A stretch of 64,000 nucleotides of DNA, from positions 29,092 through 93,091 of the IMG/VR virus record IMGVR_UViG_3300032516_000008; one strand, given 5' to 3'. This DNA is from a virus (Duplodnaviria > Heunggongvirae > Uroviricota > Caudoviricetes). Both the position numbers and the translations under genes were made by a program. Under the pieces are notes generated by a model. The model did no database searches, was not told the DNA's origin, and was given only the letters and a program-made list of their open reading frames with translations. Position 1 is the first letter of the stretch; every line of letters starts with the position of its first letter. This document shows positions 42,801 to 63,307 of the stretch, in pieces.

Positions 42801-43245
42801 TAGTCATTAATGTAATTTCATATTTGTCATTTTTCATTCTATCCATTTGTTCAACTTCGCACGACATTGAGGACAAGTCGTATGGATATCTCTTAAGTAT
42901 GTCGTGCTTGTAAATCTTGACACCATAAATTTCAAAATTCAAATGTACATCAATCAACTTACAAGCAATCATAGCTGTCATTGGTGCAGATTCAACAGCA
43001 TACTTGTGTAAGGTTTCAATACCGTTTGCATTCATGACCATATCTTCATCAATTTCAATATAGTATCGAGTCTTGCAAGAATCTATCATGCACTGAAAAG
43101 CTCTTGACATTGGATGAACGTTTTTGATAATCTCGACTTTGAATGAAACTGTTTGAGAGTTTAATGACTGCAAGCATGCGTCATAGCAAGGATTATGACC
43201 GCTACTTATGACAAAAACTGTTAAGTCAGATAAAAACACGCTCAT
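39859..43245 (-). CDS. four-domain enzyme: GT2 glycosyltransferase - radical SAM/SPASM - GT4 glycosyltransferase - linker repeats - GT-A (DxD) nucleotide-sugar transferase
   Basis: N-terminal GT2 motifs (VFVISSGHN...SLNSQT, EIDEDM). Radical SAM LTSKCNFNCRFC plus GYGEPFL, with SPASM-like cysteines CNCQIPW...GSVTFCGSVY. GT4 motif EAMSCGLPVVSTRVG. 3x IAK(I/V)EC linker repeats. C-terminal VWVDCDAII. Confidence 0.7.
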   Translation of the reverse strand: MSVFLSDLTVFVISSGHNPCYDACLQSLNSQTVSFKVEIIKNVHPMSRAFQCMIDSCKTRYYIEIDEDMVMNANGIETLHKYAVESAPMTAMIACKLIDVHLNFEIYGVKIYKHDILKRYPYDLSSMSCEVEQMDRMKNDKYEITLMTNVVGQHAPYWSNEGIFDRYRNLLDKFKQFKYIWMSDLPVKLWSMLKAEPTEQNLYALLGAYTSLITDAVQVGEKDFRNRNTSFETMRSFMNPPVSANLYLTSKCNFNCRFCYRNSQSIEQSIDMTLKNVSDLLIKHPSIRGVCCAGYGEPFLCDSLFDIISFLKSRNKVVGLITNGSLIVEKINSLLANRPDYISISLNASNAKMHNEINKSLIFNTVLQGIGLCVSNGLPTYCSYVCTKSNLRYIPEFLTLVNSLGVKTVHLLNLLPHLASDYNDESFWQEVLTYDDKHKIDALQDLPEANLIKVFPTLINRNEVRCNCQIPWTTIGINGNGSVTFCGSVYAPNRANGSLKNFENVWLNDSARKLRDSLCDVNKMTDTCKMCFRNWDEYKPLTKQIVTQSKPVPKKLRICKIIDQFGWAYYFVAKEQQLYSSHDITYKRLIDVTDIDADIVYIHAPNIDHAKINSLVSVLKQKGIKVIGGYGGESKLKYDTDPDLIVSISMRHLDCLNNMYPNKSVAFLPESIDTNFFTAAVKDDNNFIVGWAGCLRDVKRPHLLNKLKFNVIKKSDWGKQFFSDGRSLNDMKLFYHSIDVLVLTSISECMPRVVLEAMSCGLPVVSTRVGCIGMLLDKEWIVSTLPEENVISEMNNRLSLLSNSKSLRQEVGKRNRQYILKFFSWAANQSLWDKAFELIMQNKFKDIKNLGDEFIQSLPNSNELTFDNLEVQTEQTTFSELIQCELAKPVTKPQIQIEHEPLKLQPISNIAKIECVPDIAKVECADDIAKVECAPVISRLVKPLFISYYTKNTGYENEYKKLEASLRRFNLDYEIVGINSQGSWFNNCFYRTTFVKDMLNKHNRPVVWVDCDAIIQQDPQLLSTLNEFDFAFHPRIKSNGSTELLGGTMYFNCTIGALKLLAKWTELVNADRTKYRLDQSYLHEAVSTLHSLKVFHLPSTYCQIFDLMKDAGKPVIEHFQASRKYKNE
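40445..40525 (-). repeat. 3 x 27-bp tandem repeat encoding IAK(I/V)EC(V/A)xD linker units inside the multidomain gene
   Basis: gcRcattcRaYttttgctatgtYa repeated three times. Confidence 0.8.
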
Positions 43246-43772
43246 ACTTTTGTCGCTTCTACATTTAAGCTAATAAGAGTTCCATTTATTTTATCTTGTG
43301 GAATATATGCTTGACTGTAGTCATCAACATCTGCATGCTCTGTTAGTCTCCAATCATAACGTCTAATATCTTTTGCACCTGCTAATTCAAGTACATGTTT
43401 CAAAGACTTAAAGTCAAATCCTGTATAGTGAAAATTGTACAAGTAATTGCACCTACCAAATATAGGGCCTAGTATTAATGAAATATCATCTGTTTTCTCA
43501 TATACTTTAAGTAGACTTTGCATATCTGGCACAGATATTCTCAATGTACCATTTACTTTTAGCACTCTTAACCATTCATGAAGAACATCTATAATGACTT
43601 TTTTGTGAAAGTGCTCTAATACATGACAACTATAAACTACATCACATGATTCATCTTCAATCATTGGTAGACGATCAACACTATTCACTATATCAATATG
43701 AGGGTATTCTATAACATCAATGTGCGTATAGCCAGGGATATATCGTTTGCCGCAACCTAAATGTAACTTCAT
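43242..43772 (-). CDS. class I SAM-dependent methyltransferase
   Basis: MKLHLGCGKRYIPGYTHID motif I. Confidence 0.6.
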   Translation of the reverse strand: MKLHLGCGKRYIPGYTHIDVIEYPHIDIVNSVDRLPMIEDESCDVVYSCHVLEHFHKKVIIDVLHEWLRVLKVNGTLRISVPDMQSLLKVYEKTDDISLILGPIFGRCNYLYNFHYTGFDFKSLKHVLELAGAKDIRRYDWRLTEHADVDDYSQAYIPQDKINGTLISLNVEATKV

Positions 43773-44731
43773 TATTTTGTCCTTGTTGCAAGTATATTTG
43801 ACAGTTCTAATAATTGATCGTGATAATGTGACTGACAGTCAAATCCTAAGTCTTTACATAGAAATCTCATGCATGACTCAAAAGTTCTCATACCAACTAA
43901 GACTTTTTGATGTTTTGCAATTGATTGCTGATACTCTTGAATTTTTTGTCGCGACATGCTTTTAAGATATTTCATTAGATCAGCTTCAGACCAGAAATCT
44001 CTGTAATCAACGTAGCACTCTTTAGGAATAAATGTTGACGCATCTTTTGGCCCTAAATAAACAGGTATACAACCAGCTGCTATCAAATCGAACGGTTTTT
44101 CAGTCAAGTGACCCAAATCTAATTGACTTTCTATAGCAAAAGCAAACGTATAGTCTGATAGCAGTTTCACTTTAGCAGAATATCGCGGTAAGTTTTTGTC
44201 GCAAGCATCACTAGAATCTTTCTTAATTTCTAATGGTACTGGTTTATCTGAACTTCCATAAACATCCATACCCAAATCTTTGAACTTGCGAATTATAGTG
44301 TTTCTTGGCTCACCATCACGAAAATAGTTGGTTATAACAGTACCAATGAATTTTGATCGGTTATTGACTGGACAACATTCATCTTCAGTAATCCACATCG
44401 GTATCGGCATATATTTAACAGTGTCACCATCAACATCAGTCGAATTATAAGTATAGATTCTTCCAAACTTTTGCTGATATCTTAGTCTAAATCCATGAGG
44501 CTGACGATAACGACCCTCGTAATGAATCAATACTCGTTTTGAATAGTCAAATCTGTCAATGACTGCTGATACTAGTTCTCTGCGAGCAGCATCATAAGGT
44601 TGAAATACTACAAACCAATCATCTTTACTTGGTTCAACATCTGCTGTAATATTTTTGACTTCAATACTACAGTACTTATACCAATGCCAATAAGACATAG
44701 TATAGATCATCGTTGCTCCATCAATTGCCAC
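43772..44731 (-). CDS. GT10-family (alpha-1,3-fucosyltransferase-like) glycosyltransferase
   Basis: YTFAFAIES...GHLTEKPFDLIAAGCIPVYLG matches the FucT motif YKFYLAFENS..DYITEK....GAVPVV. Confidence 0.55.
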   Translation of the reverse strand: MAIDGATMIYTMSYWHWYKYCSIEVKNITADVEPSKDDWFVVFQPYDAARRELVSAVIDRFDYSKRVLIHYEGRYRQPHGFRLRYQQKFGRIYTYNSTDVDGDTVKYMPIPMWITEDECCPVNNRSKFIGTVITNYFRDGEPRNTIIRKFKDLGMDVYGSSDKPVPLEIKKDSSDACDKNLPRYSAKVKLLSDYTFAFAIESQLDLGHLTEKPFDLIAAGCIPVYLGPKDASTFIPKECYVDYRDFWSEADLMKYLKSMSRQKIQEYQQSIAKHQKVLVGMRTFESCMRFLCKDLGFDCQSHYHDQLLELSNILATRTK

Positions 44732-45309
44732 TCTTGCACAGTTAGTAAATTGAGTATTTGCTTTCTATACTTACAAAGAAAAGCAAAATCAAACATTGTT
44801 TCAGCACATTCAAATAATTCTTGCTGTCCTGGCTTTATAATTCCAATGCCTTCATCTACATCAATAGTACAGATTGACAAATTAGGATCAAACATTCTAT
44901 AAAACAATATTGCTTTCCAAACTGATCCGTTCCAATGAGACACAGTAATGTTCTCTGTTTGATGAACTTCTAATTCAGGATTACAATCATGTAAAAGTAT
45001 AATTCCGTCAGTACTCAAACATTTTAGTGAATTTGAAATGTCTTTGATCACTTGAGCTGCTTTGTGATCGCCGTCTATAAAAATGATATCGTATTGACTA
45101 GTATTACTTGAGAAAAATGCATCAGAACTCATAAGATGATTACAGGGATTTACAGGATCAACTGCATCTTTTACTGCAGCACTAATTTTGTTGAAATTGG
45201 CAGATGCATTTCCAATGCCTATTTCAAGATAACGACAATTTTGTTTTTTGCTTGTGTAGAAATTGATGATGTCTGTTCTATTCATGATTTTTTCCAGTAT
45301 GCTCCCCAA
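44707..45309 (-). CDS. SAM-dependent methyltransferase (CmcI/class I-like)
   Basis: IFIDGDHKAAQVIKD...DGIILLHDC. Confidence 0.45.
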   Translation of the reverse strand: MGSILEKIMNRTDIINFYTSKKQNCRYLEIGIGNASANFNKISAAVKDAVDPVNPCNHLMSSDAFFSSNTSQYDIIFIDGDHKAAQVIKDISNSLKCLSTDGIILLHDCNPELEVHQTENITVSHWNGSVWKAILFYRMFDPNLSICTIDVDEGIGIIKPGQQELFECAETMFDFAFLCKYRKQILNLLTVQEWQLMEQR

Positions 45310-45983
45310 GCGTCAATAATGACGATCGGATCGTGAATATTATGTAGTTTTCTAAAATCTTCAACAGCTGTTCTGCAATTTACCCAGTTATAATCATCAA
45401 TAATAACGAACCCATTTTTCTGGACTTTATGATATAACGCAGTTAATGAATCCCAAGTTGACTCATATAAGTCACCATCTAATCTCAATACAGCAATTTT
45501 ATCTATCATACTATTTGTAAGAGTATCTTTGAACCAACCCTTTAGAAATACTACATTAGTGTCTAGTAATGCATACTTTTCAAAATTATGCTTTACTTGA
45601 TCAACATCAACTCTTAAATAGTCAATGGTATGCATAGTACTATTCTTGTCAATTGGATACTTTTCTGTATTAGGCGCAGGCAAACCTTGAAAAGAATCAG
45701 CTACAAACACTTTTCGATCTGTAATATTGTATGCTTTCAAAATACCTTGCATAAAAATTACAGCACCACCACGCCACACACCGGTTTCAATTAGATCACC
45801 TTGCACATCATTTGCTATAACACTTTCGACACAATGTTGTATATTGTCAAGTCGTTTACGGCCTATCATAGTGAACGCTCGCTTAGGCCAATACGTACCA
45901 TTAGTTGTATGAGTCGTCTCTTCTTCATATATTATGTCAAGCAACGATCGCTTCAGCAAATCTAAGTACAGCTCTTTACACAT
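45282..45983 (-). CDS. TylF/MycF-family macrocin-type sugar O-methyltransferase
   Basis: FTMIGRKRLDNIQHCVESV...GDLIETGVWRGGAVIFMQGIL...RKVFVADSFQGLP matches the TylF signature. Confidence 0.7.
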   Translation of the reverse strand: MCKELYLDLLKRSLLDIIYEEETTHTTNGTYWPKRAFTMIGRKRLDNIQHCVESVIANDVQGDLIETGVWRGGAVIFMQGILKAYNITDRKVFVADSFQGLPAPNTEKYPIDKNSTMHTIDYLRVDVDQVKHNFEKYALLDTNVVFLKGWFKDTLTNSMIDKIAVLRLDGDLYESTWDSLTALYHKVQKNGFVIIDDYNWVNCRTAVEDFRKLHNIHDPIVIIDAWGAYWKKS

Positions 45984-46796
45984 TTAGTACTCAAATCTAT
46001 TCATTGTGTTAACGCTTGCATGTATTTGACACGTGTTATTAATGTCACCTCGTAAAATACATATCCATAAGCCTGCATTGTTAGTATCATAAACTACATA
46101 CTTACACTTACTCAAAATAGCAATCGCAGCCAAATAATTGACACCCAAATCGTAATTACTCATTTTTGTATCACGTTGTAAATTATGCATCACTTGATCT
46201 GTTTTTGTCAACGGCATTTCTTCAATGTGAAACGAATTAGGTAACTCGTGTTTGAAATAGTCTAATGCCTGTTGTTGATCTGTCTGTATAAGTACCCTAT
46301 AATTTGAAATGTCCTTAATCGGACTGATTGGTTTCAAATAATACTTTGGATGCACTCTTGGCACTTCAAGAATTTTATCAGTACCTCTATAAAGAATTGC
46401 AATAGTGTGATCAAAATCTATACTGTACTTTTGAATAAATGATTCTTGTTTAACTATTACTTCACTAGACAAATTGAAATATGTATCTCTAATTGGTTTT
46501 AGTACACTAAAATCAAACTTATTACAATCACCAATCATTGCATTAAAATAAATGTCTTGTCCTGTCTTAATATCACTGTTAACTGTCGTAAAATATAGAT
46601 CATAAACATTTCGACTCAATCTGTCAGGCTTGTTCCAAGCTGACGTATATGGCCATAATATTTTCACAAGTCTTGACGCATTTTTGTGTATCGATAGTAG
46701 ACTCTTAAATGTCACGCTAGCATTAGATAACAAACCACAATCATGTTTGTCAAGACTTAATGTGCTATTTTCTTGATCGTATGTTACGCCGTACAT
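45984..46796 (-). CDS. hypothetical protein in glycosylation island
   Basis: ORF tightly packed in the operon (ATGA overlaps). Confidence 0.4.
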   Translation of the reverse strand: MYGVTYDQENSTLSLDKHDCGLLSNASVTFKSLLSIHKNASRLVKILWPYTSAWNKPDRLSRNVYDLYFTTVNSDIKTGQDIYFNAMIGDCNKFDFSVLKPIRDTYFNLSSEVIVKQESFIQKYSIDFDHTIAILYRGTDKILEVPRVHPKYYLKPISPIKDISNYRVLIQTDQQQALDYFKHELPNSFHIEEMPLTKTDQVMHNLQRDTKMSNYDLGVNYLAAIAILSKCKYVVYDTNNAGLWICILRGDINNTCQIHASVNTMNRFEY

Positions 46797-47848
46797 TATA
46801 GGTTCTTTTCTAATATTCTAATTTCTCTAGAACTAACTATTACTTCTCTAGTTTTGAAGCCTGTCAATTGCAATATGTACTCGTCAAAATTGTCTCTTTT
46901 AGATTCATACATCCATGAGAACTGATCTTCATTCGGATTTGGTAATGTATAGATTATAAACTTAGTCTTTTGTGCTACTGTTTGCAAGAATTTTTCAAAC
47001 ACTTCTATAGGACATAATCTCGATATATGATGCAGTATTGCTAGACACAATGTGCAATCTGCACTTTCACTAGTCTCAATGTAGTCTATTGCATTTGTAT
47101 TATGACAAGAAAACCCTATTTTGTTTAGCAGTATACTTGCTATTTGAAATCTAATTTTGTCAGATTCAATGCCTATACCATGCTTAATCAGATCTTTTAG
47201 TTTGTAAAGAGTGAAACCGTGACAAGTACCCAAATCTAATACGCTGTCAATCTTGTTTTGTTTGAAGAAGTCGCAGATAATTTGCTCTTTGTTACCGTCA
47301 ATTGCTGTGGCCCAGTCACTAAAGTCAGGATGCGGTATCGGCTGATATAGCATTTTGTTAGGATACAAATCTTCAATTTCTTTGTATAGTTCAGCCCATC
47401 CCGGTAATCGCTCACATATTGTAACTTCTATAGGCAACCGCTTGAAAGTCAATAAGCTTATTCTATGCATGCCATCCCAAATGTCAATGGCGCCATTACA
47501 GCGAACTTTCACAGGTCTATATCCATAATAGTGCGCAGAATTCGTATCAGTTTGCAATATGCTATATTCCTCTTGCCACTTAGGAGCTATCAAATACATA
47601 GCTCTATATCTAGCACATTGCTTCACAATGTCATCTTCATTTTTCAATATTCCGCCCCACACAACATTGTCAGCTATAAACATTGACATTAACCATTTGT
47701 AATAGAAAGTAGATTCTAAAGGTATGTCAATATTTTCTTGCCATTGCTGCGCGGTCAAATAATGAGGACCAGATTTAATGAAATCTAGTAAATCAGTACT
47801 CCAAGGATCATTACCAATTAGTACTTTTTTCGGTATCATAATTTTCAT
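46796..47848 (-). CDS. protein with C-terminal class I SAM methyltransferase domain
   Basis: DSVLDLGTCHGFTLYKL motif I. Confidence 0.5.
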   Translation of the reverse strand: MKIMIPKKVLIGNDPWSTDLLDFIKSGPHYLTAQQWQENIDIPLESTFYYKWLMSMFIADNVVWGGILKNEDDIVKQCARYRAMYLIAPKWQEEYSILQTDTNSAHYYGYRPVKVRCNGAIDIWDGMHRISLLTFKRLPIEVTICERLPGWAELYKEIEDLYPNKMLYQPIPHPDFSDWATAIDGNKEQIICDFFKQNKIDSVLDLGTCHGFTLYKLKDLIKHGIGIESDKIRFQIASILLNKIGFSCHNTNAIDYIETSESADCTLCLAILHHISRLCPIEVFEKFLQTVAQKTKFIIYTLPNPNEDQFSWMYESKRDNFDEYILQLTGFKTREVIVSSREIRILEKNL

Positions 47849-47915
47849 CTAAGAGATCAAAAAAAAAGCTGATAACATATTCTATGTCATCAGCTTTTTC
47901 AAATTTATGAATTAG

Positions 47916-48596
47916 TTACACTCTTCTAAAAGGCTGCTCAAACGGTGACGGTGCAGTTATACTAACTCCCATTGCTGCAGGTCTGCCAGTTGCAGGTTTT
48001 GCAACAACATTAACGATATAATTGTAAGCATCACTCCAAATTGATCCATCATTCACTCGTACAGGTATTGATCGTGAAGTAGTTGACAAACTACCTTCAA
48101 TTAAAATCTTCACTGATGTACTGGTTGATGAAATTATCGAGTATCCTATACCAGTAGAAGCTAATAGTGTGAATTGTTGAGGATATATCTTACTAGTAGT
48201 AACAATCAAATTGTTAAGAGCTATGGTAAGATATGAACCAATGTACAACTTAGGAAAACTAGTCTGATTTGAAATAACAGGCATCTCAACAACTGATACA
48301 CTAAGACCAAACCAATCACTCCATGTTGAACCACCGTCATTACTAATTCTAACAGCGACGGATAATGAACCAACATAACTAGTTGTAGGAATGACGTCAA
48401 ATTCTTCTACTATACCTGAATCTTGATTCACTGCATAATGAGCTCCAGCTTGACCTTCAATCACCCAATCTTTTCCACTACCATCAGGAAAATCAGGATC
48501 ATCAGTGAATAGATCTACCAAATGAACTACTAATGTCTTGTTTTTTCCTGAAACAATCGGACTAACTCTTTGACCAGTAATAACAGGAGTTGCCAT
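47916..48596 (-). CDS. Ser/Thr-rich Ig-like (cadherin/BIG-like) domain protein, first gene of minus-strand island
   Basis: AGGA ribosome-binding site on the minus strand. Two beta-sandwich-like segments with S/T-rich stretches (SSTSTSV, LSTTSRS). Confidence 0.45.
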   Translation of the reverse strand: MATPVITGQRVSPIVSGKNKTLVVHLVDLFTDDPDFPDGSGKDWVIEGQAGAHYAVNQDSGIVEEFDVIPTTSYVGSLSVAVRISNDGGSTWSDWFGLSVSVVEMPVISNQTSFPKLYIGSYLTIALNNLIVTTSKIYPQQFTLLASTGIGYSIISSTSTSVKILIEGSLSTTSRSIPVRVNDGSIWSDAYNYIVNVVAKPATGRPAAMGVSITAPSPFEQPFRRV

Positions 48597-48933
48597 ACAT
48601 TTGTCCTTTCAATAATGTTGATTACTATGATTGTTTAGATCAGATTCAAATTTGACAGTAAATTGCGAAGGGCTTCATATTTAGAGTGATAGAATAAAAC
48701 AATGATCAATTACATGTGGTTTTTCTACGATTATAGGCGTGATTAATGTTCTTGGGAAATAATTGTACATCTTTTGATAATTTGATTATATTATACACAA
48801 GAACGATTTTCACTAAAGGAACGAAGATGCGAATTACCACCAGTACGTTTAATAATAACACGTACAGTTGTTGCTTTAATAGCAACAGCAAACTGGTGGA
48901 GTTCGTGTAGATAGATAACTCAAAATCTTCTAC

Positions 48934-48973
48934 TAAAAAAGCTCCACTGGCGAAAGTCAATGGAGCTTTTTTA
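48934..48973. terminator. bidirectional intrinsic terminator
   Basis: AAAAAAGCTCCA-ctggcgaaagtca-ATGGAGCTTTTTT. Confidence 0.7.
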
Positions 48974-49053: not shown

Positions 49054-49125
49054 GGAGACTTAGCTGAGATGGATTAGCGAGTGGTTGAAGCCCACTAGAG
49101 GACAGCTCGATACTGTCAGTCTCCA
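49054..49125 (+). tRNA. tRNA-Phe (anticodon GAA)
   Basis: Manual fold: acceptor GGAGACT/AGTCTCC, D-arm GCTG-AGATGGAT-TAGC, anticodon arm AGTGG-TTGAAGC-CCACT, T-arm GACAG-CTCGATA-CTGTC. Confidence 0.75.
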
Positions 49126-49196
49126 TTCTTCATGCGGTCAAGTTCTAGACTTTATCTTGTATTGATAGTTCGTAATGTACTAACAAGGAGTATATT

Positions 49197-50438
49197 ATGA
49201 ACATATGTAAATGCGGTAAATCATTCAAAAATGCAGGAGCGCATGCTATTCATCGTAATAGTTGTCTTTATGTTAAGCATCCAAAAGAATGTGAACTCAT
49301 TAGATCAGATTATAAAAATAAGTTGTTAATTTCAGATATCAAGAAAAAATATTGTTTCACAAGAAATGAAATTCATGCAGTTGTCAAAGACATATTACGA
49401 AGTGATAGCGAGACAAATAAAATTGCCCATACAAACCCTAATAGAAAAAAATATCATAATATCAATAGTAATTTTGCTAAGAAAGTGATGTGTGAAAAAT
49501 GTAAAAGAACAATTAGTGTTGTAAATCTTTATAAACATACTTGTGTAAGTGAAGAAGTTCGTGAAAGTATAATCAAGTTATATAATCTAGGCTTATCACC
49601 AAGGGATATAAGAGCGAAAGGATATGACAAAAGGGTCATTAGTTTTTCATTAAGTCATAAAAGACGATCTTTGTCTGATTCTATTAAAGCTAGATATAAA
49701 AATCATCCAGAGACATTTAAGCTTTCTAAAGCAACAAAAGATAAGATTAGACAATCAATATTAAAAGCTAGACAAAATGGAATTGCTTATAGTTGGACAA
49801 GAAAGAAGCCATCATATGCTGAAAGTAAATTTCACGAATTTTTAGTTAAGTTAGGATTGAAAGAAAATGTTGATTTTTTTACAGAATTTCCATTTTCTAT
49901 TTATAGAGCAGATTTTTATTTTCCAAAACATAAACTTGTAATTGAGATTGATGGTGAACAACATGTAAAATATGATGTAATACGAGAACGAGATAAACGA
50001 AAAGATGAATATTTGAAAAATCATGACATTAAAGTTTTAAGGATAAGATGGAAAGATGTGCATCATAATCATGAAGTAATTTATGATGAAATTAAAGACA
50101 TTTTGAATAATTCACAAAACTTTGAATTAAGACTAGATACTTTCACTAAAGCACAAGCTAGACGGTTACAACTATTGACAGAGTTTGAAATAAATCGTGA
50201 TCAATTAAAAATTGAAAAGCAACAAATAAAAAAGCTAGAGCAACAAGCTAGAACTGCACAACAAACTAAAGACATTTTACAAAGTGATTTTACAAAGCGT
50301 GGCACAGTCGAAAATCTTAGTAATAAATGGAATGTCTCACATACACAAGTTAGACGGCTCGTGAATAGATATATGACATGCTGTGCGGGCAACCGCTTAG
50401 GGGTTCGAGTGCCTTCTCGTCAGCCATTAGTTGCATGA
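49197..50438 (+). CDS. free-standing homing-endonuclease-like protein (N-terminal Zn-finger/NUMOD-like repeats + DUF559/Vsr-like PD-(D/E)xK nuclease domain)
   Basis: CKCGK...H...C motifs and a C-terminal YRADFYFPKHKLVIEIDGEQH...RDKRKDEYLKNHDIKVLRI. Confidence 0.6.
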   Translation: MNICKCGKSFKNAGAHAIHRNSCLYVKHPKECELIRSDYKNKLLISDIKKKYCFTRNEIHAVVKDILRSDSETNKIAHTNPNRKKYHNINSNFAKKVMCEKCKRTISVVNLYKHTCVSEEVRESIIKLYNLGLSPRDIRAKGYDKRVISFSLSHKRRSLSDSIKARYKNHPETFKLSKATKDKIRQSILKARQNGIAYSWTRKKPSYAESKFHEFLVKLGLKENVDFFTEFPFSIYRADFYFPKHKLVIEIDGEQHVKYDVIRERDKRKDEYLKNHDIKVLRIRWKDVHHNHEVIYDEIKDILNNSQNFELRLDTFTKAQARRLQLLTEFEINRDQLKIEKQQIKKLEQQARTAQQTKDILQSDFTKRGTVENLSNKWNVSHTQVRRLVNRYMTCCAGNRLGVRVPSRQPLVA

Positions 50439-50443
50439 TTTGT

Positions 50444-50520
50444 TGGCCCGTAGCTCAGCTGGCAGCAGCGAGCGGCTGTTAACCGCTAGGTCGTAAGTTC
50501 AAACCTTACCGGGCCAGCCA
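50444..50520 (+). tRNA. tRNA-Asn (anticodon GTT), CCA encoded
   Basis: Acceptor TGGCCCG/CGGGCCA, anticodon arm AGCGG-CTGTTAA-CCGCT, T-arm GTAAG-TTCAAAC-CTTAC. The D-arm is atypical. Confidence 0.7.
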
Positions 50521-50594
50521 TTTTTTTTAACTGAAAGGAGATATGATGACGTCCAAACCAATGCGCACTTAGTGGCGCTAACAAAGGAGTCATC

Positions 50595-50831
50595 ATGTCG
50601 CATCCGGTTAGCAAGAGAGATCGCTTTCTTGTTGGGGTCAAGAAGAGTAAGAAACGCGTAACTAACTTTTACACGTATCTTACGAAGTTAGAGCATCCTG
50701 AATGGGTTGCAAGAGCAGAACAGATGCGAAGAAATACTACAAAGACTTGTTCATGTAGCGGGTGCGGCAATCCGAGAAAGTATTTTGGTGAGAAAACAAT
50801 GCAAGAAAAACGTTACGGAGAGTTGGAGTAA
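50595..50831 (+). CDS. hypothetical protein (Cys motif CSCSGCGNP)
   Basis: ORF with GGAG ribosome-binding site. The 3' end overlaps the start of the tRNA-Ser gene. Confidence 0.35.
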   Translation: MSHPVSKRDRFLVGVKKSKKRVTNFYTYLTKLEHPEWVARAEQMRRNTTKTCSCSGCGNPRKYFGEKTMQEKRYGELE

Positions 50832-50901
50832 TGGTATCTCAGCAGTTTGCTAAACTGCCGACCGAAAGGTCTTGTCGGTTCGAATCCGGCACTCTCCGCC
50901 A
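50817..50901 (+). tRNA. tRNA-Ser (anticodon GCT), long variable arm, CCA encoded
   Basis: Acceptor GGAGAGT/ACTCTCC, anticodon arm GCAGT-TTGCTAA-ACTGC, variable arm GACC-GAAA-GGTC, T-arm GTCGG-TTCGAAT-CCGGC. Confidence 0.8.
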
Positions 50902-50921
50902 TTCTAGTCTTTGAGGATCTG

Positions 50922-51272
50922 ATGTGGATAGACGATAAAAGTGATGGTTGTGTGTATGACACAATTGATTGTAATAAGTGTGGCAATTGCGGTCGGAAGT
51001 TTGACATAGAAGATGAGGATAAATTGGACTTCATTGTAGAAAATGAAACAGTAAATATATCATTTCAGTCAATGAATGACATGTTACAGATGCATGTGCA
51101 TTGCGGAATGAAGTCCAAGAAGATACCGTTGCTATTAGAGAAACATCAAGTAACAAAGATCTTGAGTAAACTTGATGATCTTAAAGAAAGAACATTTGAA
51201 TCATTTGACTATTTTACAATGATAGTTGCAGGCTGTGCAGAAACAGTAATGAAAGGCGGAATGCACAGATGA
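50922..51272 (+). CDS. hypothetical protein
   Basis: The track ORF at 50847 starts inside the tRNA-Ser gene, so the likely start is Met at about 50922. Confidence 0.3.
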   Translation: MWIDDKSDGCVYDTIDCNKCGNCGRKFDIEDEDKLDFIVENETVNISFQSMNDMLQMHVHCGMKSKKIPLLLEKHQVTKILSKLDDLKERTFESFDYFTMIVAGCAETVMKGGMHR

Positions 51273-51658
51273 AACAGTATCCGTCAATTTCACATGATAT
51301 ACGATCGGTTCAAGCGTATGCGTTCGACAAACTTGATGGCTCGAATATTCGAGCGGAGTGGCATCCAAAAAAAGGCTTCTGGAAATTCGGTAGTAGAACA
51401 AGACTGCTCGGTACTGACCAGCCGTGGCTCAGTAAAGCAGACGAACTCGTCAAACATAAATATGGAGACGAACTCTCAAAGATTTTTAGGGCACAGCGGT
51501 ACGAGAAGGTCGTGGCATTTTTTGAATTCTACGGTGCAAACTCATTCGCAGGACACCACGTAGACGAGCAACATACAGTCACGTTAATTGATGTAAGTGC
51601 TCATCGACATGGTATTGTACCACCAAAGGAATTCGTGAAATTGTTTTTGCACAATTAA
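51269..51658 (+). CDS. truncated nucleotidyltransferase (RNA/DNA ligase-like) N-terminal fragment
   Basis: Motif I-like DKLDGSNIR and motif III-like VAFFEFYG. Only 129 aa, and it ends immediately before two tRNA genes. Confidence 0.35.
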   Translation: MKQYPSISHDIRSVQAYAFDKLDGSNIRAEWHPKKGFWKFGSRTRLLGTDQPWLSKADELVKHKYGDELSKIFRAQRYEKVVAFFEFYGANSFAGHHVDEQHTVTLIDVSAHRHGIVPPKEFVKLFLHN

Positions 51659-51661
51659 TGT

Positions 51662-51736
51662 GACGGCATAGCCAAGCTGGTAAGGCAGCAGTCTGCAAAA
51701 CTGTTATCGGGAGTTCAAATCTCCCTGTCGTCTCCA
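51662..51736 (+). tRNA. tRNA-Cys (anticodon GCA), CCA encoded
   Basis: Acceptor GACGGCA/TGTCGTC (one GU pair), anticodon arm GCAGT-CTGCAAA-ACTGT, T-arm GGGAG-TTCAAAT-CTCCC. Confidence 0.7.
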
Positions 51737-51743
51737 TATAAGT

Positions 51744-51816
51744 GCCGCTATAGCTCAGTTGGTAGAGCAACTGCTTCGTAAGCAGTAGGTCGGAGGTTCA
51801 AATCCTCTTGGCGGCT
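51744..51816 (+). tRNA. tRNA-Thr (anticodon CGT)
   Basis: Acceptor GCCGCTA/TGGCGGC, D-arm GCTC-AGTTGGTA-GAGC, anticodon arm ACTGC-TTCGTAA-GCAGT, T-arm GGAGG-TTCAAAT-CCTCT. Confidence 0.8.
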
Positions 51817-52186: not shown

Positions 52187-52326
52187 CATGGAATCATGAA
52201 GTTTTTCAATAAGGATGTAGCTATGTTGTAGATTATCGGCTTCACATAGGTGCACATACGAGCACCGCCTGATATACTTCTACGTTAATTGTCTGTCAAC
52301 AAACAACAATAAACTAGGAGTATATC

Positions 52327-52620
52327 ATGGATTTGACAATTCTTAAGAATGAACTCAAGACTAAAGCCCTCGAGATTCGACAGACTAAAGTCGAACTTTC
52401 AAAACCTCATGATGCTGCAAGCGCATTAAAGCAATGTCAATTGCACATAATGAAAAGTCATATTCGGCTCAAACATATTGCGTATTGTATTCTGAGAGGA
52501 ACGCCGTATGAGCGTATTGAAAAGCCTCGCGAAGGTAATGAGCCGAACATGGACATTGTTCAACAATTTATCCGGGAGATCCAACATGGACAAGCCAAAG
52601 ATGTATGTGCTTGTGCGTAG
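52327..52620 (+). CDS. hypothetical protein
   Basis: AGGAG ribosome-binding site. Confidence 0.4.
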   Translation: MDLTILKNELKTKALEIRQTKVELSKPHDAASALKQCQLHIMKSHIRLKHIAYCILRGTPYERIEKPREGNEPNMDIVQQFIREIQHGQAKDVCACA

Positions 52621-52891
52621 TGATCTTGCCGAGACATACAGATGTGTGCAAGGTACTCATGCATTAGCGCAATTCGCATTGAGATATCCTGAGGTATTTC
52701 GCCAGTGGAATAATGGGCATTTGATATTTTTGAGTGTCCGCTTTGCAAGTGGAATCGAACATTGGTCAAGTCTTTTGTGTTTGCAAAATAAATTGTCTGC
52801 GACATTTATTGAACCAGATCAAGACAATAGACCAACAGCTGTAGCTTGTTATGACACTGGTGAGATTTTCAAATCTCTACCGCTTGCATGA
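52586..52891 (+). CDS. peptidyl-tRNA hydrolase, PTH2 family
   Basis: KMYVLVRSDLAETYRCVQGTHALAQFAL matches the PTH2 pattern K.V.VVR.DL.M..GK.AAQ..HA. Length about 101 aa. GGGAG ribosome-binding site before the ATG at 52586. Confidence 0.6.
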   Translation: MDKPKMYVLVRSDLAETYRCVQGTHALAQFALRYPEVFRQWNNGHLIFLSVRFASGIEHWSSLLCLQNKLSATFIEPDQDNRPTAVACYDTGEIFKSLPLA

Positions 52892-52898
52892 TGGAAAT

Positions 52899-52970
52899 GC
52901 CTCGATAACTTAGCGGTCAAAGTGACGGTCTCTAAAACCGTTATCGCCAGTTCAAATCTGGCTCGAGGCA
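52899..52970 (+). tRNA. amber suppressor tRNA (anticodon CTA, reads UAG); short variable arm, discriminator A
   Basis: Acceptor GCCTCGA/TCGAGGC, D-arm ACTT-AGCGGTCA-AAGT, anticodon arm ACGGT-CTCTAAA-ACCGT (U33, anticodon C34 U35 A36), T-arm GCCAG-TTCAAAT-CTGGC. Confidence 0.7.
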
Positions 52971-53142
52971 TTTTTCATAGCTATTCTAATTGACTATTAT
53001 ACTATGGCTAAAAACATAAGCTGTAGAGTCTGCAGTAAATCATTCAATGTCAAAGAATCGACGCGTGTATACGGAGACATACCAGCAAATCACAGATGCT
53101 GTTCTGCGCGATGTTATACAGAATTTTTGAAAGGTGTAGATA

Positions 53143-53664
53143 ATGACGCCAGCACAACTAAAAGCACAACTAATTAGTCGAGTGCATCGTCTGAATGAGT
53201 TTCTTAAGATGCCAGAGACTCCTGACTGGATTATTGACAATGAACGGAAGTTTATTGAAAGGTCGTACCAACATCTAAAAGACATTGGTATAGACGCGCA
53301 GCAATATCTAGAATCTGACCAGGGTAAGACTGACTATCTCATGTATGCAGTAGATCATGACGGTCGAAATGCTGCAATAGACCGTTGTACTAGCTGTGAG
53401 CATTATGAAATGATTGATTTAGAAATTGGCAGAACTGATATTCAGTGCGAACTGAAAGTTGAATTGTTTCCTGATGCTTGTCGTGCTTTTCGTGAAGCAG
53501 AAGATTGTGATACACGATTTCAAATGATGTCATTAGAACGATGTCAAAATTGTCACAATGCTGTTATGGTCAAAGAATTTAATGACATAGAATTTCCTTA
53601 TTGCTCAAAAAAGCTAAATCGTATTAAAAGAGATTGTTTGAGTTTTGATCCAAAGGAATTTTGA
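53143..53664 (+). CDS. Cys-rich hypothetical protein
   Basis: ORF. Confidence 0.4.
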   Translation: MTPAQLKAQLISRVHRLNEFLKMPETPDWIIDNERKFIERSYQHLKDIGIDAQQYLESDQGKTDYLMYAVDHDGRNAAIDRCTSCEHYEMIDLEIGRTDIQCELKVELFPDACRAFREAEDCDTRFQMMSLERCQNCHNAVMVKEFNDIEFPYCSKKLNRIKRDCLSFDPKEF

Positions 53665-54332
53665 TGAAGCGATCTACTCTAATCGAATCAAAAATTCGAG
53701 CGTACAATCCAAAAGGCGATCTTGCACACACTGCTCGTTTAATTCTGGCCATGTGTGATGTGAATCATGTTTCTACAAAAGATCATTTGGAAAGAGTAGC
53801 ACTGCTTGCAGAAGCAACAGCAAAGAAACTGCGAAAAGATGCAAAAGCTGCCTTTTTTGCAGGTCTTCTACATGATGCCGGCAAACTTTTACTGCCAGCT
53901 CAGTTATTTGACGGACATAACATAGATGCAGTAGAATACGATAATGTAAAAACTCATGCCCAAGCAGGCTACAAGGCTCTCAAGAAGCTGCACATGTTCA
54001 CGGCTCTTTGTGCAGGTTTGCATCATAATCTTTACAAAGCAGGTTACGGTTTAGATCGAAATGCTTTTCCTGAGAATTGGTCACCGTCAACTATCAAAAA
54101 AGTTTTGGAAATTTCAACAATCATATCTATTTGTGATTTTGTGGATGCTTTTAACAACAGAAAAACAGAAATCAAAGACGGATCTGATAAAATTGAACAA
54201 CCGGATTTGAAAAGCATGCTGTATACAAAGTACGGAGATGACAAAGAAGTCGTCGATATTATTCTTTTTCTATACAAGACTTGTAATTTCAATACTTGGA
54301 CAAAGCATGTTTCACGTACCAAATCTGTATAG
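53661..54332 (+). CDS. HD-domain phosphohydrolase (HD-GYP-like features)
   Basis: H...HLERVA...LLHDAGK...GLHHNLYKAGYGLD (compare HD-GYP HHE..DG.GYP). Confidence 0.5.
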   Translation: MMKRSTLIESKIRAYNPKGDLAHTARLILAMCDVNHVSTKDHLERVALLAEATAKKLRKDAKAAFFAGLLHDAGKLLLPAQLFDGHNIDAVEYDNVKTHAQAGYKALKKLHMFTALCAGLHHNLYKAGYGLDRNAFPENWSPSTIKKVLEISTIISICDFVDAFNNRKTEIKDGSDKIEQPDLKSMLYTKYGDDKEVVDIILFLYKTCNFNTWTKHVSRTKSV

Positions 54333-54684: not shown

Positions 54685-54882
54685 GTGAAAGCAGTTTACA
54701 ATATAGACCCTGATCAGGGTGCTGTAGCGTTGCTTACTAAAGTAACGTTGCCCGGATACAAAGTGGTAAAAATTACTCGAAAAGGTAAGATCGCTACAGT
54801 AGAATATGATAAGGTTACTATAGGAATTCAAATACCAATTCTTGACTCTATTCTTGTTGGAACAAGTCGTGATTTGTCTTGA
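54685..54882 (+). CDS. small hypothetical protein
   Basis: TAAGGAGA ribosome-binding site, GTG start. Confidence 0.3.
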   Translation: MKAVYNIDPDQGAVALLTKVTLPGYKVVKITRKGKIATVEYDKVTIGIQIPILDSILVGTSRDLS

Positions 54883-55714
54883 ATGTAATAAAGTGGTTAG
54901 GGCAATAGTTTATAGACATTTACAGTCATGTTGTGGATTGAGTGTTAGAGAGTACAAGAAAAAGCATGGTGTAACTAAGATTGCTGATGATGACGTTCTA
55001 AATTCTTATGCTTGTAAAGACGAAAAGAATGGACGATGGATAGGACGAAAATTAGTAAAAAGCTTTTGTCTAGATTGTGGCAAGCAGTTGAAGAGGAGGC
55101 CGGGCCCAAAAGCGTCAGGATTGTGTAAGTCATGCGTTCAATTAGGAGAACGTAACAATTTTTATAATAAAAAGCATTCGTTAAAAGCTCGCGAGCAAAT
55201 GAAGAAGAATCATTATGATTGCTCGGGAGAAAATAACAGTTTCTTTAATAAGACGCATTCAACTGACTCATTACAACTTATGAGTCAGTCACATGTTGAA
55301 AATTGGAAAAATTACAGTAATGAGAAAAGATGGCAGATTTTAATAAATTGGATTTGCGCGGGCACAGCTAAACATTCAAAAACTTCAATAGAAGAAACTA
55401 TTAATTCAGTTTTGCTATTTCTTGGATTAAAAGAAGTTGATGACTATAAGAGGAACACTCAAATTGGTAAATACAATGTTGACTTTTTAGTGTATAAGAG
55501 GCTAATAATAGAGTGCTATGGTGATTATTGGCACAAGAATCCAAAATATCATAATTCATCAAATGATGAAGTAAAACGACTAAAAGATTTAGAAAGAGCG
55601 CGTTATTTAGAAAGTAAGGGTTATAAGTTTCTGTATTTTTGGGAAGATGAAATTAAAAATGACATTAAAAGTGTGACAGACAAAATGATAATGTTTTTAG
55701 AAAGTGAGAAATGA
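54842..55714 (+). CDS. free-standing homing-endonuclease-like protein (Zn-finger + NUMOD3-like repeats + DUF559/Vsr-like nuclease domain)
   Basis: CLECNK...C, CLDCGK...CKSC, repeated NNFYNKKHS / NSFFNKTHS motifs, C-terminal KYNVDFLVYKRLIIECYGDYWH. Paralogous to the C-terminus of the 49197 gene. Confidence 0.6.
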   Translation: MTLFLLEQVVICLECNKVVRAIVYRHLQSCCGLSVREYKKKHGVTKIADDDVLNSYACKDEKNGRWIGRKLVKSFCLDCGKQLKRRPGPKASGLCKSCVQLGERNNFYNKKHSLKAREQMKKNHYDCSGENNSFFNKTHSTDSLQLMSQSHVENWKNYSNEKRWQILINWICAGTAKHSKTSIEETINSVLLFLGLKEVDDYKRNTQIGKYNVDFLVYKRLIIECYGDYWHKNPKYHNSSNDEVKRLKDLERARYLESKGYKFLYFWEDEIKNDIKSVTDKMIMFLESEK

Positions 55715-56878
55715 ATGTTTTCATATAAAAAAGATCAATTTCGTGTGCCAGTAAAAGTCTGGATGAACGAAAGTAGCTATTATGCTGATGATGCAATGGT
55801 TAAACAAGTAGAGAATTTGGCAATATTACCTTTTGTATTTAGTCATATTTCTTTGTCTCCTGACGGGCACGTTGGCTACGGGATGCCAATTGGCGGCGTT
55901 ATGGCAACCAAAGGCGTCATAGTTCCAAATGCTGTTGGTGTTGACATTGGTTGCGGCATGTGTGCAGTTAAGACGTCATTGCAATCAATTGACAAAGATG
56001 AATTGAAAAAGACAATGGGAAGGATTCGTGAAGCAGTCCCTGTAGGATTCGAACATCACAAAGAGAAAATATCGTGGGAAGGGTTTGATCGAGCACCTAA
56101 TGTAGCAATTATTCAACAGCAATTGAGTACAGCACAGACTCAGCTTGGTACGCTAGGAGGTGGCAATCACTTCATTGAGATTCAAAAGGGATCAGATGGT
56201 TTTGTTTGGGTCATGCTACATTCTGGTTCTCGGAATTTTGGCTTGAAAATAGCCAATGAATATCATAAGAAAGCACAATGGCTATGCGAGAAATGGTATT
56301 CGAGTATACCCGACAAAGACCTTTCGTTTCTTCCAATGGAAACAAAAGAAGCACATGAATACTTTGATGTCATGAAGTTTGCACTTGAGTTTGCAAAAGA
56401 GAACAGATTTCGAATGATTGACGCAATAAAACAATCATTTGATATTTCAGGAATTACGTTTGATGAAACAATCAACATTCATCACAATTATGCAGCTTGG
56501 GAACATCATTTTGGTGAAGATGTCATTGTTCACAGAAAAGGTGCGACATCAGCCAGAAAAGATCAAATCGGATTGATACCCGGTTCTCAAGGTACAAAAA
56601 GCTATGTAGTACGTGGCAAAGGTAATGAAGATTCATTCATGTCATGCTCGCACGGTGCTGGTAGAAAAATGGGACGGAAACAAGCACAAAGAGAATTGAA
56701 TTTAGATGCCGAAAAGAAACTACTTGATGATCAAGGCATCATTCATGCCATTCGAAATAAAGCTGACTTAGATGAAGCTGCCGGTGCTTACAAAGACATA
56801 AGTGTTGTTATGGACAATCAAAAAGATTTGGTGGATATTGTAGTAGAACTTTCACCATTAGCTGTCATAAAAGCATAA
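55715..56878 (+). CDS. rtcB: RtcB-family RNA 3'-phosphate ligase
   Basis: VGVDIGCGMCAV, GGGNHF, HHNYAA, and SCSHGAGRKMGR metal/GTP-binding motifs. Length 387 aa. Confidence 0.85.
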   Translation: MFSYKKDQFRVPVKVWMNESSYYADDAMVKQVENLAILPFVFSHISLSPDGHVGYGMPIGGVMATKGVIVPNAVGVDIGCGMCAVKTSLQSIDKDELKKTMGRIREAVPVGFEHHKEKISWEGFDRAPNVAIIQQQLSTAQTQLGTLGGGNHFIEIQKGSDGFVWVMLHSGSRNFGLKIANEYHKKAQWLCEKWYSSIPDKDLSFLPMETKEAHEYFDVMKFALEFAKENRFRMIDAIKQSFDISGITFDETINIHHNYAAWEHHFGEDVIVHRKGATSARKDQIGLIPGSQGTKSYVVRGKGNEDSFMSCSHGAGRKMGRKQAQRELNLDAEKKLLDDQGIIHAIRNKADLDEAAGAYKDISVVMDNQKDLVDIVVELSPLAVIKA

Positions 56879-61897: not shown

Positions 61898-62620
61898 ACT
61901 GCTACATTTAACATCCAGCTATAAAGTCATTGATGAAATTTGCATAATATATTTCATGCAACTAACTTATAAATTCACTTCTAAACATACTAACGCTAGC
62001 AAACTAGAGTCTATACGAGAACTCTCTAAAGTTTACCAGAAATACTATAATACATTATTTAGTGAAGAGTTAATAATCACTGGAGTGATTCTATCACTTA
62101 TGTTAGAAAGTAACGAGTCAATGTTAGCTTTCGCTTGTTGTTCGCATGTTTGCTTGTATCGTTCTGAAAAGTTCTCATTAGAGAATTTTTCTATTATAGG
62201 TAGATATTTGGGTAGTGACCCGTTTTTGTAGAAGTCGTGTAGGCTTTTAGACACGACTGATACTAAAATAATTCTTCATTATATCAATAAATATCATCTA
62301 TGGTTTCGTGAGTCAGTCAAGATAAGAAATACAGACGTCCCTCAAGAGCTAATGAAACTAGTAAGTTTGGTTTATCTACGCTTGTTAAAGTGATTATTGT
62401 TTTATATTCTCAGGAATATTCAAGAAAACCTGAATACTTTGAAAAACACGAGAGTGTAATGCAAACCCTACAACTTCATACTGCACCTATAAAACGTGTC
62501 AAGCGACACGCAGTGTTGGGGTTGTCCTATTTATCATGGCTATCAGTTGGATACGAAGGCTATGATAAATCGTGGACAGGCGGGGCTTGAGTTAATCCTA
62601 AACACTTAGGCTAAACACAA

Positions 62621-62948: not shown

Positions 62949-62958
62949 CTGAATTTAT

Positions 62959-63036: not shown

Positions 63037-63090
63037 AGCTAGTTGCATGATTCAATTGACAATTACTAGTGATCTTTGAAATAAGTAAAT

Positions 63091-63164: not shown

Positions 63165-63178
63165 CTTACATTGAATTA

Positions 63179-63255: not shown

Positions 63256-63307
63256 GTTAAAGCTCTTTGACATATTGATGATGAAGCACATTTGAGAACG
63301 TAATTAC

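Follow-up and report, generated by a model that had tools for sequence, protein, structure and literature searches.

We analysed a 64,000-nt window of an uncultured myovirus (IMG/VR record IMGVR_UViG_3300032516_000008, positions 29,092 to 93,091; coordinates are those of the window unless a contig is named) around a predicted amber-suppressor tRNA gene at 52899-52970 on the plus strand, whose anticodon CUA occupies 52932-52934. Directly 5' of the tRNA lies a small gene that was overlooked in the original prediction and that we call gene B (52586-52891, +). It encodes a 101-aa protein with a predicted, divergent PTH2 (peptidyl-tRNA-hydrolase-like) fold and its TGA stop lies 7 nt before the tRNA. 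A second small gene, gene A (52327-52620, +), overlaps the start of gene B by 35 nt, encodes a 97-aa protein predicted to form a helical hairpin and ends in TAG-TGA. Judging from sequence comparison, we consider it very probable that this phage, although not recoded, possesses a functional UAG-decoding tRNA that is co-expressed with a dedicated PTH2-fold enzyme.

By its anticodon, 5'-CUA-3' at positions 34-36, the tRNA belongs to the amber-suppressor class. ARAGORN, run on the 64,000-nt window, called 16 tRNAs in total, among them one with anticodon cta at 52898-52971(+), and the Rfam model RF00005 matched 52899-52970 with 69.3 bits (E=1e-14; gathering score 29), the alignment covering model positions 1-71 completely with a posterior probability of 1.00. 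This is the second-best Rfam score among the 15 tRNAs located between 48 and 64 kb. The RNA folds with -28 kcal/mol (RNAfold, z=-5.3) and none of 200 shuffled sequences was as stable. Reading the sequence, we find a 7-bp acceptor stem (GCCUCGA/UCGAGGC) followed by U8 A9, a 4-bp D stem (ACUU/AAGU) closing an 8-nt D loop (AGCGGUCA) with G18 G19, a 5-bp anticodon stem (ACGGU/ACCGU) with the loop CUCUAAA (C32 U33 C34 U35 A36 A37 A38), a 4-nt variable loop (UAUC), a T arm with a 5-bp stem (GCCAG-UUCAAAU-CUGGC) and the discriminator A73 at 52970; CCA is not encoded. With U33, a purine at position 37, a UUCRANY T loop and G18G19, the molecule has every feature of a canonical class-I elongator-type cloverleaf. 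The loop CUCUAAA is typical of efficient amber suppressors and is the one that the extended-anticodon rule predicts for efficient decoding of codons whose first base is U. The original prediction had placed a CUA anticodon in a canonical cloverleaf at these coordinates, with the same loop, a short variable arm and discriminator A, and ARAGORN, Rfam and our reading of the sequence agree with it on all these points.

A run of five T residues (52971-52975, +), seen by reading the sequence, follows directly after the discriminator and may represent the transcript end or a 3' processing context; the terminator scan did not call it. Rfam detected neither a theta nor an HDV-like (hepatitis delta virus-like) ribozyme, the latter being a type reported beside gut-phage suppressors, nor any other RNA flanking the tRNA. 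The exact tRNA pattern had no match in IMG/VR, and the tRNA with its surroundings had none among GenBank phages (megablast, blastn).

Structure prediction places the product of gene B in the PTH2 alpha/beta fold. The AlphaFold 2 (AF2) model has a predicted local distance difference test score (pLDDT) of 95.6 and a predicted template modelling score (pTM) of 0.88, and the top 15 Foldseek matches in the PDB consist of 14 PTH2-type structures and 2gax, a protein of unknown function (query-normalised template modelling score, TMq, 0.61-0.82; probability 0.99-1.0). We found 39 homologs of gene B, which share the motifs MYVLVRxDL...YRxVQGxHA...WxN...FxEPD...TAxAC...GEIF; residues Y18, Q22, H25, E76, P77, D78 and T84 are invariant and R19 is nearly so. 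When the profile of the family was compared with the PDB, the best match was a peptidyl-tRNA hydrolase (E=1.2e-4), and PF01981 was matched by 11 of the 40 family members (best E 1.4e-5). The phage also encodes another, canonical PTH2, of which gene B is a very divergent paralog (20% identity).

Gene A is found directly upstream of gene B throughout the cassette family. Its ~100-aa protein family comprises 297 cluster representatives in 1.84 billion proteins, and its predicted helical hairpin (AF2 pLDDT 92.5) had no Pfam, PDB sequence or significant fold match. Within the gene B family, the CUA tRNA is always preceded by the two overlapping small genes, A and then B, and in 8 of the 10 family representatives it starts 6-8 nt past the gene B stop. 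Upstream of gene A, a consensus scan detected a promoter-like site (TGCACA-16-TATACT with TG; 52251-52278, +), a candidate start of an A-B-tRNA transcript, and the 60 nt preceding gene A are nearly identical in the window and in L015, a contig of a close relative. Given the promoter-like site before gene A and the T-run after the tRNA, a single A-B-tRNA transcript is plausible.

Two relatives are available in IMG/VR (126 and 128 kb, with protein identities of about 76-80% and about 90%), and comparison with the 90% relative allowed us to assess how the suppressor evolves. A syntenic tRNA is present there (L015 9241-9314) with nearly identical flanks, the same acceptor stem and the CUA anticodon, even though the two tRNAs are only 68% identical overall: their inner parts differ, and the D, anticodon and T stems have changed in a compensatory manner. 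CUA tRNAs also occur in L082-L085, L087, L090/91 and L099-L103, where gene B is 56-64% identical; these additional lineages come from unrelated samples and include contigs of 114 and 149 kb. Among the five distinct tRNA sequences, C34 U35 A36, A73, G1-C72 and C2-G71 are invariant. Across these five bodies, 91% of the stem cells are paired compared to 67% in shuffles (none of 500 shuffles reached as high a value), and double, compensatory changes are seen in 13 of the 21 stem pairs, all slid controls being far lower. The invariant anticodon together with the compensatory changes indicates that the tRNA is under selection and excludes a drifting pseudogene, a possibility that the original prediction had left room for. 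The relatives retrieved through RtcB (L009-L014) were uninformative, as they lack the suppressor. We also observed that the tRNAs for Phe, Ser and Cys and the suppressor (49054-51816 compared with L015 6738-8005) diverge far more than the flanking protein genes; with flanks almost identical, these tRNAs are either evolving fast or being swapped as cassettes.

The pairing of a gene B homolog with a suppressor tRNA recurs in distant phages. A tblastn search of GenBank phages with gene B returned only 23 records, namely Lak megaphages, five huge uncultured phages and three mycobacteriophage records. In the cultured Mycobacterium phage ScoobyDoobyDoo, gp79, annotated as ‘peptidyl tRNA hydrolase’, is followed 180 nt further on by gp80, a tRNA(cta), and in Cane17 the homolog gp148 is followed by tRNA 149, annotated as ‘OTHER’, for which ARAGORN gives the anticodon cta. 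In LR756500 (462 kb), a CUA tRNA 0.8 kb downstream is the sole tRNA within 4 kb of the homolog, and in LR756501 (735 kb) two tandem CUA tRNAs are the only ones in that range. In Lak-A1, a UUA suppressor located 0.7 kb upstream of the gene B homolog is the single tRNA nearby. Thus, the homolog lies near a suppressor tRNA in 5 of the 7 GenBank genomes that we inspected by hand. By a rough estimate, made without a formal test, the chance of lying within 2 kb of a suppressor locus is about 1% per genome at 0.46-0.74 Mb, which makes an accidental association unlikely across these seven genomes.

In spite of its suppressor, the phage uses the standard code and TAG is one of its ordinary terminators. 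TAG ends 24 of the 87 open reading frames (ORFs) in the window and 34 of 125 (27%) over 82 kb of the phage's own contig, compared to a TAG share of 24% among the stop trinucleotides of all frames, i.e. TAG is not depleted as a terminator. The four examples of TAG stops named in the original prediction (22492, 36786, 37465 and 59602) are correct, some TAG stops are conserved in a relative, and cassette-bearing relatives likewise use TAG as a stop. Coding density in the window is 0.948 with the standard code and 0.930 with TAG as a sense codon, and no 8-kb block or related locus gained density specifically from TAG as sense. In-frame extensions past TAG have a median length of 11 codons and are not longer than those past TAA or TGA. 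Both coding density and stop usage led us to reject whole-genome recoding. L034, an unrelated contig with 57% GC, was considered as a positive control for the density measure and discarded because its density rose with any stop made sense. L034 (Ga0299913_10002243) contains, at 5712-5788, a CUA tRNA with an identical acceptor stem and an encoded CCA, and its ORFs merge with TAG, TGA or TAA as sense.

Genes interrupted by TAG were sought in a composite covering about 117 of about 128 kb, put together by coordinate bookkeeping from the window, L016, L066, L020-L022, L049 and L056, and the screen with TAG as sense covered ORFs of at least 100 aa. No such TAG-interrupted ORF was found in 82 kb of the phage's own contig (window plus 18 kb; L016, L066), and there was no in-frame TAG in about 35 kb of relatives' sheath, tape-measure and baseplate genes (L020, L021, L022, L049, L056). 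The evidence on late genes is a composite from relatives, among them the 76-80% relative as well as L049, for which the suppressor is established. The relatives' tail, baseplate and sheath ORFs, including those of L049, which represents the suppressor-bearing 90% relative, are intact (441-2163 aa) and mostly end in TAA or TGA.

Listing ORFs with TAG as sense produced artefacts (antisense frames, tRNA genes and a terminator hairpin at 22492-22540) and two candidates. The first, a read-through fusion of 36204-36788 and 36789-37058 across a TAG, was rejected: the RNase H domain lies entirely ahead of the TAG (Pfam RVT_3 matched up to 119/123), and the ORF that follows, which codes for an unrelated CxxC zinc-ribbon protein, is equipped with an AGGTGG and an ATG of its own, so that these are two separate genes. 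Nowhere else in the window than at 36204-37058(+) would amber read-through give a defined fusion (284 aa); the two frames there are contiguous and gap-free. For the second candidate, 61956-62231 with a 53-codon extension (to 62393), there was neither a family match nor a relative covering it, and a real extension is unlikely. Three in-frame TAGs at 22492-22516 were also considered as a read-through signal and rejected as part of an intrinsic-terminator hairpin. That hairpin (22492-22545; AGCUGUAGA...UCUACAGCU followed by UUUUCU) is a strong one, located between gene 22075-22494 and the NAD-ligase gene, and contains two of the three close in-frame TAGs, the first TAG being the stop of gene 22075-22494. 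Taken together, what stands of the original reading is a phage-encoded CUA tRNA alongside TAG as a genuine stop. Its proposal of a partial stop-codon reassignment finds no support, given the undepleted TAG, the coding densities and the lack of TAG-interrupted genes in the regions screened, and neither does that of a regulated read-through of specific genes, where extensions are no longer than after TAA or TGA and the candidates failed.

The amino acid carried by the suppressor can be approached through its ancestry. Comparison with the phage's own tRNAs was ambiguous (0.64-0.66 identity to Asn, Trp and Cys), the anticodon arm resembling those of its tRNA-Trp and tRNA-Cys. The original prediction had described the body as of the Gln/Trp/Lys type, which is doubtful, since the exact acceptor stem with A73 corresponds to tRNA-Phe in 13 of 14 matches in cellular genomes. 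The combination of acceptor stem, T loop and A73 corresponds to tRNA-Phe(GAA) in 12 of 25 metagenomic matches. Bacterial tRNA-Gln and tRNA-Trp carry G73, A73 being atypical for both. The suppressor of the 90% relative retains G10, U20, A26, G44 and U45, which form the Phe identity set of E. coli. A Phe-derived body is plausible on account of the acceptor stem, T loop and A73 combination and of these retained bases, and charging through U35 by lysyl- or glutaminyl-tRNA synthetase is the classical candidate alternative to a Phe identity. Three further loci (L026, L033 and L040) carry 76-nt class-I tRNAs with the anticodon UAA (called Leu), the tRNA-Phe-type acceptor GCCUCGA and A73; these may be Phe-bodied tRNAs reading UUA/UUG.

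The genome that hosts the cassette is about 126-128 kb long, with 37% GC and at least 33 tRNA genes, and was assigned to a myovirus because sheath, tape-measure and baseplate genes are located upstream of the window. Metagenome assemblies from ENA, JGI and Logan contain the same phage, on contigs of up to 99.6 kb. The window had no DNA-level relative among GenBank phages (megablast, blastn), and the DnaB of the phage is at most 26% identical to that of any cultured phage. About 95% of the window is coding in the standard code, with genes for a baseplate wedge protein, a 2157-aa protein, helicases, DnaB, an NAD-ligase and RNase H. Some auxiliary genes are unusual for a myovirus: an FtsK/SpoIIIE-like ATPase (818 aa, 8505-10961), an SPFH/flotillin-like protein (469 aa, 31299-32708) and a PolX-PHP DNA polymerase (557 aa, 33575-35248). 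On the minus strand, a block of radical-SAM, glycosyltransferase and methyltransferase genes (39234-48960) encodes a 1128-aa radical-SAM/glycosyltransferase fusion, TylF-like and Methyltransf_11/24 methyltransferases and a GT10 fucosyltransferase-like protein, and may be a module for the modification of DNA or surface glycans. The 76-80% relative (L007 compared with L020; IMGVR_UViG_3300031707_002715) differs from the window phage in that the replication module has the opposite orientation with respect to the tail module. No gene for a major capsid protein, portal, large terminase or endolysin was recognised by PHROGs in the ~117-kb composite, so the genes for head and packaging must either have diverged strongly or be situated in the ~10% of the genome that was unseen.

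The cassette is part of a larger tRNA island. tRNA cluster I (49054-51816, +; Phe, Asn, Ser, Cys and Thr, called by ARAGORN and Rfam) is interspersed with small ORFs and an HNH/DUF559 endonuclease. Downstream of the suppressor, gene calls and Pfam place an HD-domain protein (53661-54332), a DUF7694 protein, a NUMOD3/DUF559 homing endonuclease and an RtcB RNA ligase (55715-56878) on the plus strand between 53661 and 56878. Cluster II (62859-64000, +) contributes 10 tRNAs called by ARAGORN within the window and continues beyond it, where the island goes on to at least 33 tRNAs and includes a PTH2 fused to an NrdR-type zinc ribbon (L016 17776-18291) and a Thg1-like 3'-5' polymerase (L066 16253-16945). 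That tRNA-maintenance genes are interleaved with at least 33 tRNA genes points to a possible conflict with host defences directed against tRNAs. Homing endonucleases of the HNH, DUF559 and NUMOD3 types are found between the tRNAs (49197-50438 and 54842-55714 in the window; L066 13989-14588), and in more distant relatives (L082, L087, L099-L101) the same islands hold IS605/TnpB (Cas12f-like) genes. Some of the tRNAs are themselves unusual. The first of cluster II, a 91-nt tRNA at 62859-62949(+) with discriminator A and an Rfam score of 52.8 bits, was called Lys(ttt) and has a class-II-type variable arm with a 6-bp stem; its amino-acid identity is questionable because class-II bodies are normally those of Leu, Ser and Tyr, and two ordinary tRNA-Lys genes come after it. 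About 17.3 kb past the end of the window, on contig L066 of the same phage, two adjacent paralogous tRNAs (19380-19453 and 19455-19529) have 8-nt anticodon loops (CUCUUGGU and CUCUUUUU), in which ARAGORN reads the 4-base anticodons cttg and cttt; these tRNAs might read quadruplets or act in frameshifting, or else be loop variants of Gln and Lys tRNAs that escape anticodon nucleases.

How might the cassette work? Genes A and B and the tRNA would form one transcription unit, from the promoter-like site to the T-run, and cleavage by RNase P at the 5' end of the tRNA would leave an A-B message ending just past the gene B stop. A host synthetase would then charge the tRNA, with Phe-type ancestry, or Lys or Gln through U35, as candidates, and the charged tRNA would compete with release factor 1 (RF1) at UAG in the infected cell. 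Ribosomes escaping termination would read on until they meet another in-frame stop (TAA, TGA or TAG), at a median distance of 11 codons. The PTH2-like partner would most likely act on the acylated or peptidyl form of the tRNA, either recycling peptidyl-tRNA(CUA) that has dropped off or limiting the charged pool. Suppression would thereby be tolerated or tuned, and the module would hence be a trans-acting override of UAG termination and not the decoder of a recoded genome. Those that benefit could be host genes, a small number of phage genes that are short or were unseen, or ribosomes held up at UAG when RF1 runs short. For this full reading, a functional amber suppressor together with a role of the hydrolase on its tRNA, our confidence is distinctly lower than for the co-expressed pair itself, and on balance we lean towards it.

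Several observations weigh against this interpretation. On the side of the protein, gene B of the window itself has no Pfam match, the conserved Lys of PTH2 aligns with its R19, and both a correspondence to the PTH2 active site and the activity are putative. We infer the role of the hydrolase from adjacency, and that adjacency has exceptions: 2 of the 10 family representatives have no suppressor nearby, and two huge phages (2 of the 7 GenBank genomes) have no tRNA of any kind within 4 kb of the homolog. Moreover, PTH2-type genes occur in tRNA islands anyway, and the second, canonical PTH2 of the phage is not beside a suppressor. In the Xanthomonas jumbo phage XacN1, discussed further below, the suppressors lie in terminal repeats and the peptidyl-tRNA hydrolase, ORF295, is apparently not adjacent to them (PMC5852040), unlike the 7-nt spacing in the window. 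On the side of the tRNA, its charging, amino acid and expression are all putative. Efficient constitutive suppression should leave marks on stop usage, yet TAG is not depleted as a terminator and backup stops within 4 codons are found after 29% of TAG stops compared to 33-35% of TAA and TGA stops. Nor was a read-through target found in the ~117-kb composite, and a few short TAG-containing genes, e.g. for lysis, may be among the unrecognised or unseen genes.

Among other explanations, the one that fares best is a rescue or anti-defence function. If RF1 were compromised, ribosomes would stall at the 27% of genes ending in UAG, and the suppressor would move them on to a TAA or TGA read by release factor 2, with the PTH2-like enzyme freeing peptidyl-tRNA that drops off. 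Such a function would jointly account for a conserved suppressor, a normal use of TAG and a dedicated partner with a hydrolase fold, and the next in-frame stop is at a median of 11 codons. The module also sits inside a tRNA-repair island (RtcB, Thg1-like, PTH2 and HD) typical of conflicts over the translation apparatus, and the tRNA genes change far more quickly than the protein genes beside them. The chain is entirely inferential, however: we saw neither an RF1 inhibitor nor a release-factor gene in the phage, and we have no RF1-targeting defence to cite. In some genes TAG is followed by a further TAG as the next stop, and TAA and TGA are not enriched shortly past TAG. We therefore regard this function as rather unlikely, while counting stalled ribosomes among the possible beneficiaries of the override.

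A late-phase code switch, or a programmed read-through of a few phage genes with in-frame TAGs for lysis or the head, as in crAss-like and Lak phages, appears less likely still. Suppressor tRNAs are strongly tied to recoding, and recoded codons cluster in structural and lysis genes with replication genes remaining standard (Borges et al., 10.1101/2021.08.26.457843). Most genes of the window serve replication or are auxiliary, roughly 10% of the genome was unseen, capsid, terminase and lysis genes went unrecognised, and gene B homologs occur in Lak phages, which the literature describes as TAG-recoded. The regions that we could screen nevertheless speak against it, as neither the 82 kb of the phage's own contig nor the ~35 kb of relatives' late genes held a TAG-interrupted ORF of at least 100 aa, TAG as sense did not improve coding density, and the only in-frame pair turned out to be two complete genes (RNase H and zinc ribbon). 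Furthermore, TAG is here a frequent (27%) and partly conserved stop, contrary to the depletion that precedes recoding in the model of Borges et al.

A non-decoding role, in which the tRNA would serve as a substrate, regulator or decoy for the PTH2-like protein or an anticodon nuclease, CUA being chosen as orthogonal to sense decoding, we consider very unlikely. It would fit the tight physical coupling to an enzyme with a tRNA-binding fold, the tRNA-repair surroundings, which suggest a conflict with tRNA-targeting nucleases, and the presence in the same phage of other odd tRNAs (the two with 8-nt anticodon loops and the class-II body with a UUU anticodon). Yet all features for EF-Tu and the ribosome are canonical, the extended-anticodon rule ties CUCUAAA to efficient decoding, and a charged CUA tRNA would enter the ribosome at UAG regardless. 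An even smaller chance remains for a neutral relic, i.e. a redundant tRNA copy with a mutated anticodon and without function, as could be imagined from the missing targets and the many tRNA paralogs (three Lys, four Leu): the anticodon is invariant and compensatory changes have maintained 13 stem pairs across lineages in which the adjacent protein is only 56-64% identical, the tRNA is among the best-scoring of the window, and the cassette architecture has been kept. Finally, a pyrrolysine tRNA, which is how ARAGORN labels this and every other CUA anticodon, has practically no likelihood, since such tRNAs have a variable loop of 3 nt, a reduced D loop from which G18G19 are missing, an anticodon stem of 6 bp and a single base linking the acceptor stem to the D stem, whereas U8 A9, the 8-nt D loop with GG, the 5-bp anticodon stem, the 4-nt variable loop and the UUCAAAU T loop are canonical here, and no pyl genes are among the annotated neighbours.

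With a functional suppressor and its hydrolase-fold partner as the preferred reading, the locus bears on a more general question. Phage suppressor tRNAs are now explained mainly as recoding tools, which leaves the orphans in XacN1, phiKp24 and mycobacteriophages without explanation. Here, an orphan suppressor is under long-term purifying selection even though TAG is a normal stop, and it is accompanied by a conserved partner of PTH fold. It is conceivable, and we put it forward tentatively as an idea that we ourselves think improbable, that PTH2-fold protein and suppressor tRNA constitute a widespread and unrecognised phage ‘termination-override’ module, the hydrolase releasing, recycling or gating the tRNA, which works even in phages with the standard code. 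If so, the pair could keep ribosomes moving at UAG, for example when RF1 is disabled, and could be a pre-adapted toolkit from which full TAG recoding evolves. In recoded phages such as Lak, the pairing may reveal a missing component of the code-switch machinery. On a practical matter, the same pairing in cultured mycobacteriophages of M. smegmatis makes the role of suppressors in non-recoded phages directly testable. The tRNA itself is of a known kind. As far as sequence comparison can tell, the cassette with its PTH2-fold partner and its recurrence in mycobacteriophages, huge phages and Lak appear to be new, and in the literature on phage suppressor tRNAs and peptidyl-tRNA hydrolase we found no description of the pairing.

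Among known systems, the recoded phages (crAss-like, Lak, Agate and Jade) resemble the window phage in having a canonical phage-encoded CUA tRNA that is presumed to be charged by the host, no phage aminoacyl-tRNA synthetase having been seen in either case. Stop-codon-recoded phages with suppressor tRNAs were reportedly described by Ivanova and colleagues in 2014. Gene B homologs are present in recoded Lak phages too and, in Lak-A1, the one checked, lie beside the suppressor. Recoded phages use their suppressors for in-frame stops after depletion of that stop (Borges et al., 10.1101/2021.08.26.457843). For the window phage, in contrast, we found no in-frame TAGs, the standard code already gives a coding density of about 95%, 27% of the ORFs terminate in TAG, and no release-factor gene was seen. 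A closer parallel is XacN1, which uses the standard code and encodes 56 tRNAs, Thg1, a peptidyl-tRNA hydrolase and two CUA suppressors, and for which an in-silico search for read-through likewise found no targets (PMC5852040). The Klebsiella phage phiKp24 has a similar unexplained tRNA-Sup (PMC8386662).

The Ceeclamvirinae mycobacteriophages, which are cultured and annotated with the standard code, share the order of a gene B homolog (31-35% identity, tblastn E 2e-6 to 7e-4) followed by a CUA tRNA on the same strand (ScoobyDoobyDoo gp79/gp80; Cane17 gp148/tRNA 149). They differ in their spacing (180-250 nt compared to 6-8 nt), the absence of gene A, their high-GC host and an unrelated tRNA body with the acceptor GCACCAU, CCA being encoded in ScoobyDoobyDoo.

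As to the protein, the modelled fold of gene B resembles PTH2 structures from archaea and human (MJ0051 2zv3, PH1539 1wn2, SsPth2 1xty and human Bit1/PTRH2 1q7s; TMq 0.71-0.82), and the motif pattern xVxVRxDL...Q..HA of archaeal and eukaryotic PTH2 is present. At 101 aa, however, gene B is about 15-20% shorter than these enzymes and 14-20% identical to them, the window copy does not reach the Pfam thresholds, a conserved Arg is aligned to the Lys of the PTH2 GK motif, and EPD...T stands where PTH2 has DAGxT.

As to the tRNA, the laboratory amber suppressors (E. coli supE and supF, the synthetic tRNA-Phe(CUA) and T4 psu1+) likewise carry CUA in an otherwise ordinary tRNA body, and Normanly et al. 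are said to have found in 1986 that tRNA-Phe(CUA) inserts Phe in E. coli. Unlike those suppressors, which are single mutations under laboratory selection, the tRNA of the window is natural and deeply conserved together with its partner genes.

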